Assembly (NCBI GenBank): GCA_051047955.1
Contig: JBPGPT010000003.1
Span: 372,001-436,000 of the forward strand
DNA: 64,000 nucleotides
Direction: 5' to 3'
Source of the DNA: Cystobasidiomycetes sp. EMM_F5
Taxonomy: Eukaryota
Part shown: one piece after another, positions 5,833 to 60,156 of the stretch
How positions within the stretch are numbered: position 1 is the first letter of the stretch
Layout of the letters: each line of letters opens with the position of its first letter
Notes under the pieces: generated by a model
Seen by the model: the letters and a program-made list of their open reading frames with translations, nothing else
Database searches by the model: none
Told to the model about the DNA's origin: nothing
Made by a program: the position numbers and the translations under genes

Positions 5833-7518
5833 ATGTCAAACGTGAGTATGCGTTCACAACCTCAGTCAGCCATATACATCAAGCCTGGCGGAAAGGGCTG
5901 GCTATGAGTGCCTGGCGACACTTGGCCAGAATGCAGCATCTCTGGCGCGACCGCTCAGTGACGACACCAATGCTAGGACAGTGCTTGCGAGGGTGCTTCG
6001 GCTGAAGCTGCTCTTCGAGTCGAGTCCCAGTCCTGTCTATACACTCAGTGTTAGCGGGGTTTGCGACTGGCGTGATGAGCAGGTTCAGCCGCATGGCAAG
6101 AGACTGCCCGGACCTTGATGTCCCACTCTGCGACTTTCTTGCACACTGTCTCAGCGTATTGGAGGTCCGCAGCCGTCTTGGGCAAGAGACTGCGTTCCAG
6201 CCCGAAAATGCGACCTGCCGTCAAATAGATGTAGTACCCGCACTGACAGGTATTGCTGTGTATTTAGGAGCGTGAGACAGATGTCTACATGGCAAAGGTA
6301 TGAATAATGCTTCAAGAGTCAGAACGAAGCTAACATTACGTGTCTCAACAGTTGGCCGAGCAGGCAGAGCGCTACGATGAGATGGTGCGGACTACGGCCG
6401 TTTCTGCACACCACTGCGTGCTGACATCCATTTCGGAGCATAGGTAACATACATGAAGAATGTGGCCAAGGTCGGGGAGCCCTACCGAAGAGCCAATACA
6501 GCACAATTCTGATTTTTGCTTATATAGCTTGGTGTTGAGCTGTCCGTCGAGGAGCGCAACTTGCTCTCTGTGGCATACAAGAATGTACGGTTGAATCCTG
6601 CTGAAGCTCGAGTACGGCAACTGACCTTGGACTGGCAGGTTATCGGTGCTCGTAGGGCTTCTTGGAGAATCATTTCTTCCATTGAGCAGAAAGAGGAGTC
6701 CAAGAGCAACACTCCCCAAGTCGAGAAGATCAAGACCTATCGCAATAAGGTCGAGACCGAACTCGCAGACGTCTGCAACGATATTTTGAAGGTTCTGGAC
6801 GAGCATTTGATTCCATCTGCTGTTGCTGGAGAGAGCAAGGTATTCTACCACAAGATGTACGTTTCGACTAGCTTGTATATCACGGCGCAAGGTTCTGACT
6901 CTTTCGAAATGCTGTTCTTTTCCATAGGAAAGGTGATTATCACCGATACCTCGCGGAGTTTGCATCGGGGGAAACCAGGAAATGTGAGTGTAGTCACGCA
7001 GACTTGCAGCAAGTACATGCTCAGATCAGACATGCCACGATCAGCTGCCTCGGAAGCTGCTCACGAGTCGTACAAGCAAGCCACCGAAATCGCACAAACA
7101 GACCTAGCTCCGACGCACCCTATCCGCCTTGGTCTTGCATTGAACTTCAGTGTCTTCTATTACGAGATCTTGTGCGTGATATGCATTACTGGTCCACTTG
7201 TTGTACGGTGTCAGCTGACATAGATGAGTCGAGCAGGAACTCGCCCGACCGGGCATGCCACCTGGCCAAGCAAGCGTTCGACGATGCTATCGCTGAGCTT
7301 GACACTTTGTCCGAGGAGAGCTACAAGGACTCTACAGTGAGATGATAGCGAGATTTCCTAGACTTGCGGACTGACCAGTCGCACTATCGCAGCTCATCAT
7401 GCAATTGCTGCGTGACAATCTTACTCTCTGGACTAGCGACATTCAAGACGCTGCGCCAGTAGAAGAGAAGGCACATGATGATGCCAAGCCGGAAGAGTCG
7501 GAGTCTGTTGCCTCATAA
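5833..7518 (+). CDS. 14-3-3 protein
   Basis: [98 protein letters not shown]; many short exons. Confidence 0.97.
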
Positions 7519-22041: not shown

Positions 22042-22290
22042 TTTTGCGGGGATGATTCGGGTAATGGGACTTTGAGCAGCAAGAGCTTCCAGATTGTGGT
22101 CTCGAAACCGTCTTCTGATCTTAGATGGAGGGGCACGCGGTGCGTCAGAGTCAATCACTTTCGAATGTGCTTCCAGGCCTTACAGGCGAAATTGGTCTGG
22201 TCCCGTTTGAAGTAGCTCGCCAGCTTTTTTCTCTGGTTTCTCTGATCTCGACAACATCCGTCAATCAATTCTCTGGATCTGGATTTGGGG

Positions 22291-22300
22291 TATATATAAA
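22291..22300 (+). promoter_or_regulatory. TATA element upstream of the tRNA gene
   Basis: TATATATAAA located 28-37 nt upstream of tRNA position 1. Confidence 0.6.
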
Positions 22301-22327
22301 ACTAAACCCGACTGTGTAACCTCAATT

Positions 22328-22467
22328 GAGGTTTTAGCTCAGCGGGTGAGCTACCAATGCGCCTTACTCTGTAACGCTATCTAAACCGTTGCTTCGGGTG
22401 CAGTAGAGCGTTCGACTCCAGTGTTTCTGCGATCGATTGGTCACCTGTTCAATCCGGGTAAGCCTCT
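22328..22467 (+). tRNA. tRNA-Trp(CCA) with two introns (58-nt GT-AG intron in D-loop; 10-nt intron at 37/38)
   Basis: Exons 22328-22345, 22404-22421, 22432-22467 join to a 72-nt cloverleaf: acceptor GAGGTTT/AAGCCTC, D stem GCTC/GAGC, anticodon arm TTCGA-CT-CCA-GA-TCGAT, T arm ACCTG-TTCAATC-CGGGT; intact A and B boxes. Confidence 0.88.
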
Positions 22468-22480
22468 ATGGCTACTGTTA

Positions 22481-22513
22481 TTTTTGGGGCGACAATGCAG
22501 TCTACCCTTTTTT
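22481..22513 (+). terminator. Pol III oligo-T terminators
   Basis: T5 at 22481-22485 and T6 at 22508-22513 downstream of the tRNA. Confidence 0.65.
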
Positions 22514-22588
22514 GGGGAAATTGTTTGTTCTTCGAGTCTCAATCCACCCTACCCTTTTTTTGGGAAATTGTATCTTCTTCGAGTCTCA
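22502..22588. repeat. Direct duplication of ~40 bp (period 47)
   Basis: CTACCCTTTTTTGGGGAAATTGTTTGTTCTTCGAGTCTCA (22502-22541) vs CTACCCTTTTTTTGGGAAATTGTATCTTCTTCGAGTCTCA (22549-22588). Confidence 0.85.
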
Positions 22589-22662
22589 CGCGCAGTACTG
22601 CAATCACCCCGTTCGCAACCCGTTGAATGAATCCAACAGACAAAAGCGGAGTAACAACGCTT

Positions 22663-26181: not shown

Positions 26182-28847
26182 TTAGAGATCCTTCTCCACC
26201 ATCGTGATACCCTCCTTCTCCACTTCAGCCATCAGAATGTCCACCAGTTTACGGTCATAAGGCGCCAGGACACCCGGTGTGTTGATGACACCGTCTAGCA
26301 CTAATTGCACAGCAATACCACAAGGCACACCAACGAGCTTCGCCATGGATGAGGGGCCTTCACCGCGATGGAAGGGTGCACCGTAGTCAAGCAGGGTAGA
26401 AGTGCGTGTAATGACAGAGCCATCGGCATTCTCGATCTCGAATCTGTGTTGCAACATCACCATGTCTTTCTCGCCAGCGGCGTACTCCATCTTCTGCTCT
26501 AACGTCGCACAGAGTGTATCCAAGAGGTTTCCACGCGCGTTTACAGGTTCTTCGGAAAACAGACCAATCCATCGTAGACCTTGTATAATTCGCTGTTCTT
26601 CGCTAGCGTCAGGGAAGGAGGCAAGGGAAGTAATTTTGGCGATGAGGTCGGATTCGGAGCTGGACGATGCACCGAGAGCCTGTCTAGTGACATCTGCCCA
26701 CTTGGCTTGGGTGCCTGGCTTGAGATAGTCCTTTGGTGACTCGTTGAGGAATCCAATTTGTACTAAGCATTTGATGAATTCCGGGAAGCCTTGATATCGC
26801 AGAGTACCTCGAATGACCGTGCCCGCCTCTGGGATGCTATATTTCTCACGGAAGCTGGTAGAATCGCGATTCGGGTAAGCCACGAAAGCGAAAGCTGGGT
26901 TGATGAAGTATGGCTTTGCTACGCCCATAAGGTCTTTGCCGTCAATCTCGACAAGCTCTCCAGCTTTGTAATATTTAGCTGAGTTGAGCAAAGCCAGCAA
27001 TACGCCCCGACTGGACCAAGAGAACTAGTGTGGGTGTGAATTAGAATGAGTACTGATAGATATCCCAAATGTCTGCTAACCTTGTATCCTAAGGGATTGT
27101 CAGCTGCACTAGGAGCCGGTAGACCACCTAACATGAAATCGACTTTAGCATTGTTGCAAAGGAAAGCATCAATATCAACTCACCGCAGTACGAAATGAAG
27201 GATCGAATCTTTCCGCCAGCTTTGTGTGTATCGTCAATTGTCTTGACTGCGTATAAGTGATCGATACCTGGGTCCAGACCAATTTCATTCATGACGACTA
27301 TGCCCGCTTCCTTGACGGCGGGTTCAAGCTCCTTCATCGCATCGGAAACGTAAGAGGTCGTCACGACATTCTTCTTGAACTTGATTGCAGACTTGATGAC
27401 GCGGGCGTGGTGGGTGTATGGAATGAGAGAGATGACCAGATCGTGCGCTGAGACTAGCTTGTCAAGCTGCTCGCTATCAGTCACGTCCAATGATGCAGCC
27501 TCCGCTGGGCGAGACAGTTGCTGTACAAAGTTTTGAGCGTTCTGTAGGGTAGAAGAGGCCACAGTGAGACTGTTTTCGGGGCGACGAAGAATATAGTCGG
27601 CGCAAGGCTGAGCTACAAATCCAGATCCTAGCAGGAGAATCTTCTTAGGTGCAGCCTGTTTTGCACCTTCGCTGATTTGGGGTCGTGCGGCGTCCACAAC
27701 CTTCTGTGCGAATGTCGGAAGAACGAAAGCGGCTCTGTGAACCTTTTCGTTGTAGTATCTGCAGTTGGCGACTTTGCGGAGAGGTATCTTGACATCCCTG
27801 GATGAATCCTTGCTGCATACAACGAAGCCAATGGTACCAGACGGGTACGTTGGTATGGACGTCCATCCCCATTCAACGACTGGGAAGAGTGATCGCATCG
27901 CCGACAAGACGTTGCTGATCAAGGGCAGGTTGTTCCACATGCATTCGCCCTGGGTTGAGATGTGACCTCCTTCACGTAGCGCTTCTTGCAGTAGTTGAAA
28001 GTATGGCTTTTCGAAGAGAGCTCCCGCCGGTCCTACTGGATCAGAAGAGTCTGTGATGATGCAATCGTACTGGTTTTGCTTGCCAGCAAGCCATTTAAAG
28101 CCGTCGCCAATGTGCACAATGACGCGAGGATCGTTGAAGCCAGCTGCCATGTGAGGGAGGAACTCCTTTGATGTTCGAGGAACTGCTTCGTCGATGTCTA
28201 CTAGTGTAGCCGTTTTGACTGACGGATGTTTCAGCACCTCTCGCAACACACCGCCGTCACCTCCGCCAATCACGAGAACATGCTGATTGATTGAGAATGG
28301 CAGAGAGTGTTCCGGAACAGGAGTCCACACAGAAGATGATTGCAGGTGTCAGGAGATGCGCACATGGATTGCGTCTAAATACCGCCCACCTCTGGGTATG
28401 GGTGCGATGCAAGCGGCAGATGGGCAATCTGCTCTTGATACGAAAACTGTTGTGTCGTATGTTAGGTAAGACGTTAGAGGTCATCAGGATAGACTAGATA
28501 TGCACACCTCATCATTCTCCACGCACTGGCGAAAGGAACGGCAACATCAGTTTTCTCGGATAATGTCGGTCGCGCATTCGTGGATTACCTGAATGGCGCC
28601 GTCTAGGACTAAAACATTACCATGGTTGGTCGACTTGAAGATTAGTACGTCCTGGCAATGAGAGCGAGGTGAGTTTCGTGTCTCTAAGGCAAGGCATCTT
28701 TGAATAGGCGGTCGAGCGTACCTGAAACTTGCTCTGTTCTGTATGGAGAATGCGCTCGACCTGGAGCGACGTTGCCTGACCTGGCCATTGCGAGTTCTTC
28801 TCCATGAACCAGCCGTCGCTGGTAATGAGCGGATGCGACAAAGCCAT
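26182..28847 (-). CDS. Spermidine synthase-saccharopine dehydrogenase (reductase) fusion, Spe-Sdh
   Basis: [40 protein letters not shown] run in one ORF into [44 protein letters not shown]. Confidence 0.96.
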
Positions 28848-45517: not shown

Positions 45518-47168
45518 ATGTGAGTCTGGTCAAGGCCTAAAATGTAACGAGGGGACTGCTGATGTTGTTGTACCTTCAGGGTCGCTCCAATGAGCTCGGG
45601 AATCGGCATGTGTGTTTCGAGTAATTCAAGCTAGGATCCTGACAGCCGAAACTGACGAACCAATGAATCTAAAACTCATGCACAATGACACGCCGACAGA
45701 GCCAGTCAGTCATCTTGACGGCACTCTCCCTGCAAACGGCGTTTATTGGCTGACATTCTATCGCCATTTGCGCTGCACTCCGCCACAGACCTGCCAAACC
45801 AAAGGCACCGTATCGTCGCACGCCGCGGAGCACACTTCACTTTAATGGTGGTCGGAGAGTCCGGTCTAGGAAAGACGACACTCATCAATACGCTCTTCTC
45901 TACCGAGCTCGCCTCTGGAAAGGACTATGTTCGAAGGCATACAAAGCAGCTCGAGGACAAGTATACCGAGATTGACATTGTCAAGGCCGAACTGGAAGAG
46001 AAGCAGTTCAAAGTCAAGCTCACAGTTATTGATACTCCGGGCTTCGGCGACTATGTCAACAACAAGGATTCCTGGACGCCCATCATTGATTTTATCGACG
46101 ATCAACACGAGAGCCACATGCGCCAGGAGCAGCAGCCGGATAGAGCGGACAAGACAGATATGCGCGTCCATGCTTGTCTTTACTTCATCCGTCCAACAGG
46201 TCACGCGTACGCATTCTTTCCACCCTCCCGTTTTGTCTTTAAGCTCATGACATCTACTGCGCCCATCCAGCTTGAAACCTCTGGACCTTGAAATCATGAA
46301 GCGATTAGGCTCGCGGGTCAACTTGATACCGGTCATCGCAAAAGCAGATACTATGACGCCCAAGGATCTTATGACCTTCAAGCAACGCGTGGGTGCATCC
46401 TCGTTTCTTTTGCTGATGAGCGTTACTGAAGCAAGATGCATAGGTACGAGAAACTCTTACCGCGCAAAATGTACGCATCTACACCCCTCCAGTCGAACCG
46501 GATGATCCACAAGCTGCAGAACACGCGAGAAACTTGATTGTAAGTCCTCGCGGGTGCATTAGGTAGCCAGGCTGACGTACTTTGTACGGCAGTCTTCAAT
46601 GCCATTCTCGATCATTGGCTCGACACAGGATGTCGTGACTGGCGATGGCAGACAGGTAAAAGGACGCCAGTATCTCTGGGGTGTTGCTGAAGGTCTTTCG
46701 TTTTTCATTCGAAATCATCGGACTGCACTGACGACGTACTCGCTGTTTACAGTCGAGAATGAGGAGCATTGCGATTTCAAGAAGCTGCGCTCGCTGTTGA
46801 TCCGCACGCACATGCTGGATCTCATAACAACGACCGAGGAGGGTCATTACGAATCGTATCGCACTACGCAGATGGAGACTCGCAAATACGGAGAAGCCAA
46901 GGTTCGCAAGATGGACAATCCCAAGTTCAAGGAGGAAGAAGAGGCTCTCCGGCGTCGTTTTACTGAACAGGTCAAGCTTGAAGAAGCTCGCTTCCGGCAA
47001 TGGGAACAGCACCTCATCGCCGAGCGAGACAGACTCAACAAAGACCTTGAGCAGTCTCATAGCGCCATCAAGGCTGTAGAGGCTGAACTTGACAGTATGC
47101 AGCATATGAGTGCAGCAGCATATGCAGGCTCATCAATGTCGGCACGGGGCACTGGAGCGCGAAGATAG
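45518..47168 (+). CDS. CDC12: Septin, Cdc12 group
   Basis: [74 protein letters not shown] coiled coil. Confidence 0.92.
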
Positions 47169-58593: not shown

Positions 58594-60156
58594 CTATTGT
58601 GACACGTCCACGATTGCGGCTTTGACGGTCGCTAGATCTATCGCTTGCCCTTCTTGCTGACCATCCGTTTGATTCGCAACCGCGCCGTCTACGCCATCTT
58701 TCGCTTGTGGTGTCGGAATTGGCTGTGCTTCCTCACCCAATCTGTGCTTCTTGTTGACCTTTTTCTTCTTTTCCGGTTCCGGCGGCGGAGGATAGGCTGC
58801 TAAACTAGCTGCTTGGAAATCGGCATTTGTTCTGAACTCCTCTTGTATTGGTGCTAGCAGAGTGTTGATGGCTTCAGTCACGAAACCCTTCAAATCGCCA
58901 GGATGGACTTCTTCCTTGGCGTACGCTGCCTCTAATTGCTCGTAGGATGCAAAGTGCAGTATTCCACCGTACTGCTCTGGCCTGACGATAGTGAACAGAT
59001 CATTGGTTGCAGCATCGGCCTTGACGAAAGGGCTCTTGTTACCCTTTGAGGCTGTCTCTATCTGCAATTTCGCTATTGGGTCGACGACTGCCTTGACAAA
59101 AGCAAGCAAGCCGTTGTCTTCCACGACTCCCGGAGCGGCTACTGCTGCCTTGATCTTCTTCTTCACTTCCGCAGGGGAGTCCATGAAATCAATTTTGCTG
59201 TTGGGATCAGACGATGACATCTTGCCTCCTGCTAGACCGGGAACCATTGCGTTCATCAAATGCGCGCGCTTCTTCAATCCCAATTTCGGCAACGCCAATT
59301 CGGCCAAGATGAAGATTTTCCGCTGGTCGACACCGCCGAATTGAATGTCCACCCCTAAATATTCTTCATCCAGCGCTTGAAGGAGAGGGTACAATAATCC
59401 GGAAAGAGGAGGACTTGACGTTTGCTTTACTACTTCTGCTCCTGCTCGTTTCGCGTCATTTTCGCTCGTGATGGAAGACAGCTTAAACAAGTCTCTGCTG
59501 TAGTCTGGAGAGTACTGATACGAGGAGCCGGTCACGAACTCAAGCTTGTCCAGAGGGACGCCTATTGAACGGAGGGCTGCAGTGAGAACGAATGCATAAT
59601 AGGTGACTCGGTGATTGACCAATTCGATAGGCGCCTTGAGGTTGTCGAGGAATGCATGGACGTCTTGTGGGATCATGTCCAATCAGATAAACATATTCCA
59701 TCTAGGCTGAAACAGTCCCGCACCTGCCAGCAGTACCTTTACGCGAACACCGGCTTTGAGAAAGTCGGCAATTTTTGTGAGCGGTACGAAGTATCCACAA
59801 TGTGCTAGATCACAGATGCGCGGTGTAAGATATGCAGCATATCCCAACACTAGCGCTGGCGGTATGCTTGCTCACGCTTGCCAGTTGGAGCCGTGCCCCA
59901 GTACAGACTAGGTGTTTTCTCTTCGCGTAACAGTTGCTGGATAGTCTCAGCTCCTAGCACTTCCTGGCAATGTATAGATGTATCATAGATTGAACGATTC
60001 ACCCCGCCAGCGTCGAAGCAAATTGTGCGCCGTTCAAATAATTAGCAACAATGCTCAATTCAACACGGCTTTCTGGACCGCTCCCACCTGCAGATTTCGC
60101 GTTATGAGCTCGAACCGTTCATCGGGTGTCATAATTGCACCATTTGCGTCCGTCAT
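58594..60156 (-). CDS. TYS1: Cytoplasmic tyrosyl-tRNA synthetase
   Basis: [56 protein letters not shown]. Confidence 0.96.

Follow-up and report, generated by a model that had tools for sequence, protein, structure and literature searches.

Introns of transfer RNA (tRNA) and introns removed by the spliceosome are presented as separate classes with separate substrates (PMC12530127, PMC10275265, PMC4390854; the sources cited here and below were available in part, and what is taken from them holds for those parts). Some small non-coding RNAs are spliceosome substrates: the U6 RNA of S. pombe, made by RNA polymerase III (Pol III), is spliced by the spliceosome, a single fungal U6 gene can carry up to four canonical spliceosomal introns, and such introns also occur in U2, U5, U1 and ribosomal RNA (rRNA) genes (PMC5855946). 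Reference titles in the same source ascribe spliceosomal or mRNA-type introns to the U1, U2 and U5 small nuclear RNA (snRNA) genes of Rhodotorula hasegawae. A taxonomy look-up gives this species as Erythrobasidium hasegawianum, class Cystobasidiomycetes. The four-intron U6 gene of Tani and Ohshima (1991) is reportedly also from R. hasegawae. A literature search returned no description of a spliceosomal intron in a tRNA gene, with most subscription journals outside the search, so that this is not proof of absence; nor is one mentioned in the available parts of PMC12530127, PMC10275265, PMC4090602, PMC4390854, PMC13578239, PMC5832005 and PMC11146597. Here we analyzed a tRNA-Trp gene at 22328-22467 of a 64,000-nucleotide window (the whole stretch of DNA analyzed) from Cystobasidiomycetes sp. 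EMM_F5 (assembly GCA_051047955.1, contig JBPGPT010000003.1, positions 372,001 to 436,000). The gene is split by two inserts. We give about equal credence and doubt to the reading that the larger one is a spliceosomal-type intron, lying in the D loop of a gene that also bears a canonical tRNA intron and whose transcript would be made by Pol III.

The gene consists of three exons and two inserts, all on the + strand, as are the signals around them. Exon 1 (22328-22345) contains the 5' strand of the acceptor stem, T8 and A9, the 5' strand of the D stem and the D loop up to G18 G19, as read from the letters and from ARAGORN. Insert 1 (22346-22403) follows within the D loop; it is a candidate spliceosomal (GT-AG) intron of 58 nt with GTGAGC at its 5' end and GCAG at its 3' end. 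Exon 2 (22404-22421) resumes at T20 A21 and provides the 3' strand of the D stem, the 5' strand of the anticodon stem and the anticodon loop through CCA and G37. Insert 2 (22422-22431), seen by ARAGORN on splice forms, is a canonical tRNA intron of 10 nt at 37/38. Exon 3 (22432-22467) begins with A38 and comprises the 3' strand of the anticodon stem, the variable loop, the T arm with the B-box region (22446-22456), the 3' strand of the acceptor stem and a discriminator T at 22467.

When both inserts were taken out by their coordinates, ARAGORN folded a 72-nt tRNA-Trp(CCA) cloverleaf with an acceptor stem paired at 7/7 positions, a 4-bp D stem, a 7-nt D loop with G18 G19 and A21, and an anticodon loop ending in G37 A38. 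The invariant positions read from the ARAGORN drawing (T8, A14, G18 G19, A21 and T33, together with G53 T54 T55 C56, A58 and C61 of the T arm) were all present. This is the product claimed, in coordinates and in letters, by the original prediction, and the observation of a doubly split tRNA-Trp gene is confirmed. Removing only the small insert gave no ARAGORN gene in either mode. Removing only the 58-nt insert gave one in intron mode alone, called Gly(CCC), with the 10-nt intron set in another register (34/35). Removal of 22422-22431 leaves the anticodon loop CTCCAGA, with the intron one base 3' of the anticodon. A scan of metagenomes with an anticodon-arm pattern returned 24 loci, comprising 5 true tRNA-Trp genes and 19 chance matches in unrelated sequence; since three of these tRNA-Trp genes share the CTCCAGA loop and two more have a 14-nt intron exactly after CTCCAG, the comparison indicates that Trp, and not the Gly(CCC) of ARAGORN, is the right reading of the locus. 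The unspliced gene is missed by standard scanners, as had been anticipated. ARAGORN reported 0 genes in the 64 kb with or without intron mode and Rfam 0 matches over the window at gathering score, while a relaxed Rfam search (E<=10) over 22200-22600 gave no tRNA and two weak unrelated matches.

The boundaries of insert 1 are set by the cloverleaf, independently of splice motifs. They are not unique. Removal of 58 nt from 22346, from 22347 or from any of 22348-22352 produces a cloverleaf (7 registers), because the start of the insert, G-T-GAGC, resembles the T-A-GAGC that follows it. Three distinct products come from these registers, with D loops ending in GGTA, GGGA or GGGT, and a GGTA D loop is restored by the GT-AG register only. 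Among the 5 metagenome tRNA-Trp genes, none of which has a D-loop insert (0/5), the D loop ends in GGTA in 3/5 and in GGCA in 2/5. The boundaries proposed earlier for the large intron, 22346-22403, are those of the GT-AG register, with the correction that seven registers yield a cloverleaf. To put a figure on splice-like ends, all 127,884 58-mers of the window (both strands) were counted: GT..AG ends occur in 0.40%, a share that shrinks to 0.053% when G at +5 and YAG are required as well, and to 0.016% when a TRAY must further lie 10-35 nt before the end. Allowing for the 7 registers turns these figures into 2.8%, 0.37% and 0.11%; taken over all registers, an arbitrary 58-mer would bear ends of this kind by chance with a probability of 0.1-0.4%. 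Both strands of the window (128 kb) were also scanned for split tRNA genes, defined by a G53-C61 T arm, a 7/7 acceptor partner at most 400 nt upstream and then T-R-R-Y. One site was returned, which is the tRNA-Trp locus, so that a chance resemblance is not the explanation; the same scan found no other split tRNA in the window.

Insert 1 was compared with mRNA introns of the same window. The reference set comprised 11 introns, 7 in a 14-3-3 gene and 4 in a septin gene, and was defined by homology to the Cystobasidium minutum protein for the former and to two relatives for the latter. Junctions were chosen by GT..AG ends, an open frame and the best alignment, with no further motif required. These introns are 53-71 nt long (median 57) and have G at +5 in 10/11 cases; insert 1 is 58 nt long and has G at +5. 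Its start, GTGAGC, corresponds to the GTGAG found in 2/11 reference introns, and its GCAG end is present in 4 of the 11, which end in CAG in 8 cases and in TAG in 3. Insert 1 has the size and the end motifs of the window's mRNA introns, and the earlier statement to this effect stands against the homology-defined set. The fungal branch-site motif CTRAY, checked on these local introns, occurs in 9/11 of them at 14-29 nt from the end. In insert 1 the best candidate is GTAAC (22371-22375), which matches at 4 of 5 positions; its branch A would lie 29 nt before the 3' end, still inside the local range. The branch is the one feature in which insert 1 is weak beside the local introns. Two branch-like motifs had been proposed; TGTAAC holds as this four-of-five match to the local consensus, but CTAAAC does not fit it. 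The longest T run in insert 1 is 2, with none longer in the related locus described below, versus T runs of 4-5 in 5/11 mRNA introns (6471-6527, 6857-6927, 46207-46270, 46389-46443 and 46693-46752). An insert with no T run above 2 fits passage by Pol III, and this scarcity weakly suggests selection against Pol III stop signals within the tRNA gene.

A search of public sequencing runs returned one run, at a 0.04 share, and none of RNA. From this run, one 218-nt DNA contig (depth 2.6) was placed on the locus at 80% likeness. It spans 22323-22470 and differs from the window by 8 substitutions (at 22353, 22357, 22361, 22367, 22373, 22378, 22396 and 22397) and by a 2-nt insertion after 22400. All 9 differences lie inside insert 1, within 22353-22400. 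The 72 exon bases, the 10-nt intron, and the first 7 and last 3 bases of insert 1 are identical, and conservation of GT and AG in a relative, which had been set as a check, is found at both ends in this one contig. The probability that all 9 events fall in 58 of the 148 aligned bases is 1.5e-4 (hypergeometric), and the difference between 8/58 insert bases and 0/72 exon bases gives P=0.0012 (Fisher). Beyond 22323 and 22470 the flanks of the related contig are unlike those of the window, indicating that it represents a separate locus; an A/T-rich TATA-like run lies at a similar upstream distance and a T run about 15-23 nt downstream. Its A>G change at 22373 replaces the base of the GTAAC branch candidate that corresponds to the variable R of the motif, and the pyrimidine share of the last 20 insert bases is 0.65 in the relative versus 0.50 in the window. 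Fixed exons around a freely changing insert interior argue against a dead gene, a repeat resembling a short interspersed element (SINE) or an assembly artefact. Judged from this pattern, selection very probably acts on the tRNA-Trp gene and its insert together, and the gene looks functional.

We asked whether the tRNA splicing endonuclease could recognize insert 1. The eukaryotic enzyme locates canonical sites by their distance from the tRNA body, and a bulge-helix-bulge motif is required for the non-canonical tRNA introns of Cyanidioschyzon merolae (PMC4090602). An enzyme that chooses sites by distance cannot reach the D loop. The seven registers were tested for a bulge-helix-bulge, taken as a 4-bp central helix with further helices on either side and two 3-nt bulges, each cut after its second base. 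Consistent with the original prediction, neither a strict nor a relaxed form was present in any of the 7 registers, in the window or in the relative. Register 1 came nearest: next to the D stem, 3/4 central pairs could form (1/4 in the relative), and an inner helix was missing. Neither route, by distance or by bulge-helix-bulge, is open to the endonuclease at insert 1. An IRE1-type reaction was considered and rejected, as the cut sites are not at the third base of a 7-nt hairpin loop in the minimum free energy (MFE) fold (loop rule from PMC12530127).

Predicted folds revealed three helices of interest. A 7-bp outer helix inside insert 1 (RNAfold) would bring its ends together; the relative loses 3/7 of its pairs, gains the 2-nt insertion and no longer has this helix in its predicted fold. 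An inner hairpin (22371-22376/22387-22392) keeps all 6 pairs in the relative. The MFE fold of the precursor further contains a perfectly paired 7-bp hairpin (22335-22353) between 22335-22341 of exon 1 and 22347-22353 of the insert. In this fold the hairpin resembles a D arm, and the 5' splice site is buried in it. It is kept in the relative, where the A>G change at 22353 turns one pair into T.G, and it may be a chance by-product.

Candidate signals of a Pol III gene are present. Transfer RNA genes carry their A and B boxes within the region coding for the tRNA. Here exon 1 contains the entire A-box region (positions 8-19), so that an insert placed right after G18 G19 leaves the A box whole, as had been noted, and the B-box region lies in exon 3. 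The TATA element and oligo-T runs that had been described as flanking the gene were likewise recovered. A TATA-like element, read from the letters, is at 22291-22301, 27-37 nt upstream of tRNA position 1, and the first downstream T run (T5, 22481-22485) is 14 nt after the discriminator and is the likely Pol III terminator. The letters show further runs, T6 at 22508 and T7 at 22555, and the three may be stacked Pol III terminators. The transcribed part has a single T4 run, in exon 1. A 47-nt direct repeat of 77% identity (22478-22571) was observed just 3' of the gene, where Tandem Repeats Finder reported nothing; T5, T6 and T7 are each followed by G runs, in the direct repeat and in the sequence before it.

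Other tRNA-Trp genes bear on the origin of insert 1. L004 and L012, two fungal-looking loci of one metagenome, have a 14-nt canonical intron after CTCCAG, in the same place as 22422-22431; they share the anticodon arm, the variable loop and the T loop of the window's gene and are without a D-loop insert. Their lack of the insert, despite the shared anticodon arm, implies that the insert is lineage-specific and was probably gained in this lineage. Further scans over genome contigs and over viral contigs gave 0 matches, as expected from collections that are prokaryotic or viral. As to the source of the insert, an origin as duplicated tRNA sequence was rejected, its local alignment to the mature tRNA scoring below the shuffle mean, and no second copy, as an introner-like repeated element would have, was present in the 64-kb window, a small sample for this purpose.

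If insert 1 is a spliceosomal intron, Pol III would transcribe the gene from its intact A- and B-box regions, with the TATA-like element upstream, and would terminate at T5, 14 nt beyond the discriminator. The 58-nt insert would be spliced out by the spliceosome like any U2-type GT-AG intron, with G19 joined to T20, and the tRNA splicing endonuclease and ligase would remove the 10-nt intron at 37/38. One route by which the intron could have arisen is reverse splicing into RNA followed by reverse transcription, as proposed for U6 introns. We give slightly less than even credence to the tentative proposition that the spliceosome naturally acts on a Pol III tRNA precursor and that this tRNA-Trp needs the spliceosome as well as the tRNA endonuclease and ligase.

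Several observations weigh against a spliceosomal intron. Insert 1 has no perfect CTRAY, unlike the nine of 11 local introns noted above, though the motif is missing from the other two as well. The conservation comparison draws on one related locus, and conservation of the first 7 and last 3 insert bases is by itself not significant (about 0.16, from the interior rate). In the predicted fold, the conserved GTGAGCT could serve the hairpin of exon 1 with the insert and not U1 pairing, and the same hairpin would hide the 5' splice site and may hinder splicing. The reviews, in their available parts, give no precedent for spliceosomal removal from a tRNA precursor. Where the D or T arm of a eukaryotic tRNA gene contains an insertion, the gene is in most cases one odd member of a large synonymous set, and such genes are usually regarded as pseudogenes on that ground (PMC4090602). 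The present locus could likewise be one odd copy among normal tRNA-Trp genes. Its discriminator is T, as in the related contig, versus A in 5/5 metagenome tRNA-Trp genes, and A73 is an identity element for eukaryotic TrpRS. Such points would suit an inactive or weakly active copy from which the insert is never removed while uninterrupted tRNA-Trp genes supply the tRNA, its splice-like ends being a coincidence or a by-product of the D-arm-like hairpin. We regard this explanation as unlikely. A dead gene changing at the rate of the insert would be expected to show about 10 exon changes and none was observed, the two separate loci being equal at 72/72 exon bases whereas the insert differs at 8/58 and by an indel. 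Both loci retain every invariant tRNA position, the A- and B-box regions and a T run downstream, and the end motifs would have to be the 0.1-0.4% coincidence calculated above.

Insert 1 may instead be a real intron that is cut by protein enzymes, the tRNA splicing endonuclease or another nuclease, and sealed by tRNA ligase. It would then be comparable to D-arm introns of the non-canonical sort known from red algae, nucleomorphs and archaea, and an alternative fold, such as the hairpin that mimics the D arm, might serve for recognition. Non-canonical introns, including those in the D arm, are indeed excised in the Guillardia nucleomorph and in Cyanidioschyzon, by a mechanism that is unknown for the very short ones (PMC4090602), and both the hairpin of exon 1 with the insert and the 6/6 pairs of the inner hairpin persist in the relative. 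However, a bulge-helix-bulge is found in 0/7 registers of either sequence, the outer helix that would join the insert ends is not conserved, and the distance rule of the eukaryotic enzyme cannot extend to the D loop (PMC4090602). Enzymatic cutting of this sort would also leave the GT-AG ends, the G at +5 and the mRNA-intron length unexplained, and we consider it improbable. A further variant retains the spliceosome and changes the polymerase: a capped RNA polymerase II (Pol II) precursor would start from the upstream TATA, and RNase P and RNase Z would cut the tRNA out of it. The usual substrates of the spliceosome are Pol II transcripts, and a TATA-like element is present 27-37 nt upstream, but tRNA genes of fission yeast ordinarily have a TATA element upstream as well. 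T5, T6 and T7 follow directly downstream, with a T run in the relative too, the A- and B-box regions are whole, and insert 1 avoids the T runs that 5/11 mRNA introns have. Fungal U6, a Pol III product, is spliced by the spliceosome (PMC5855946), and we judge a Pol II origin very unlikely.

The tRNA-Trp gene is intergenic and lies between two minus-strand genes. On one side, a gene of the YjeF_N family starts at about 22040 (- strand); on the other, a - strand gene that is ankyrin-like by translation, and for which Pfam gave no family, ends at about 22955. A class I tRNA synthetase gene was noticed at 58597-59682 (-), 36 kb from the tRNA-Trp gene. It was rejected as a linked TrpRS, as it encodes a cytoplasmic TyrRS (E=9e-104 to yeast 2dlc). 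The proteins of the window match Cystobasidiomycetes. The 14-3-3 open reading frame (ORF) is 100% identical to an NCBI protein of Cystobasidiomycetes sp. EMM_F5, the septin has 90% identity to a Cyphobasidiales protein and 84% to that of Cystobasidium minutum, and a fungal CBM_1 domain occurs among the window ORFs (Pfam). Spermidine synthase and saccharopine dehydrogenase domains were also seen in one reading frame at 26185-28348 (-) by Pfam, and a fusion of these two enzymes is typical of basidiomycetes. The deposited 14-3-3 protein (P0001, 254 aa), from the gene at 6268-7515 (+), is identical to the stop-to-stop ORF 6528-7220 with intron stretches included. The true gene contains no fewer than 7 short introns, and the deposited model is probably wrong, because the C. 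minutum homologue shows the included stretches to be introns.

Should a spliceosomal-type intron indeed reside in this tRNA-Trp gene, a tRNA gene with one intron of each kind would break the separation between spliceosomal and tRNA introns. Spliceosomal introns would then be known from a non-coding RNA other than snRNAs, U3 and rRNA, implying that these introns can colonise abundant RNAs that are at no time part of the spliceosome. If this were also the sole tRNA-Trp gene, the decoding of every tryptophan codon would depend on the pre-mRNA splicing machinery. The locus would then offer a simple test case for intron gain and for spliceosome action on a compact Pol III transcript. Since split genes of this form are invisible to ARAGORN and Rfam, genomes of Cystobasidiomycetes may seem to be without tRNA genes that they have.

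Several known systems are close to this locus. Like certain tRNA introns of Cyanidioschyzon merolae, of cryptophyte and chlorarachniophyte nucleomorphs and of archaea, insert 1 is an extra intron outside 37/38, a class which includes the D arm; such non-canonical introns sometimes coexist with a canonical one, and standard tRNA finders miss the genes, as they do here (PMC4090602, PMC4390854). In contrast to the introns of Guillardia, which measure 3-24 nt in these sources, insert 1 has 58 nt and GT-AG ends. It also differs from the introns of C. merolae and archaea, for which the sources describe a need for a bulge-helix-bulge, in having none in any register. Insert 2, by contrast with insert 1, is ordinary. 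It occupies the same place as the canonical fungal tRNA-Trp intron at 37/38 and is short for its kind. Spliceosomal introns of fungal U3 small nucleolar RNA and of rRNA resemble insert 1 in looking normal, in having a non-coding host and in being mostly a matter of computational inference (PMC5832005, PMC5855946). Their host RNAs are different, and no tRNA case is mentioned in the available parts of these two papers. The introns of fungal snRNA genes (U6, and U1, U2 and U5 of R. hasegawae) share with insert 1 the form of a short GT-AG intron with ordinary splice-site signals in the gene of a small structured non-coding RNA. With U6 the locus further shares a Pol III-type gene, and with R. hasegawae the fungal class. 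Unlike in the snRNA cases, the host RNA is a tRNA, outside the spliceosome, and a canonical tRNA intron is present in the same precursor. As a tRNA is not part of the spliceosome, closeness to its catalytic centre cannot explain the insertion. Insert 1, on its spliceosomal reading, would be a tRNA-hosted form of something already known, the mRNA-type introns that this fungal class carries in genes for small non-coding RNAs.

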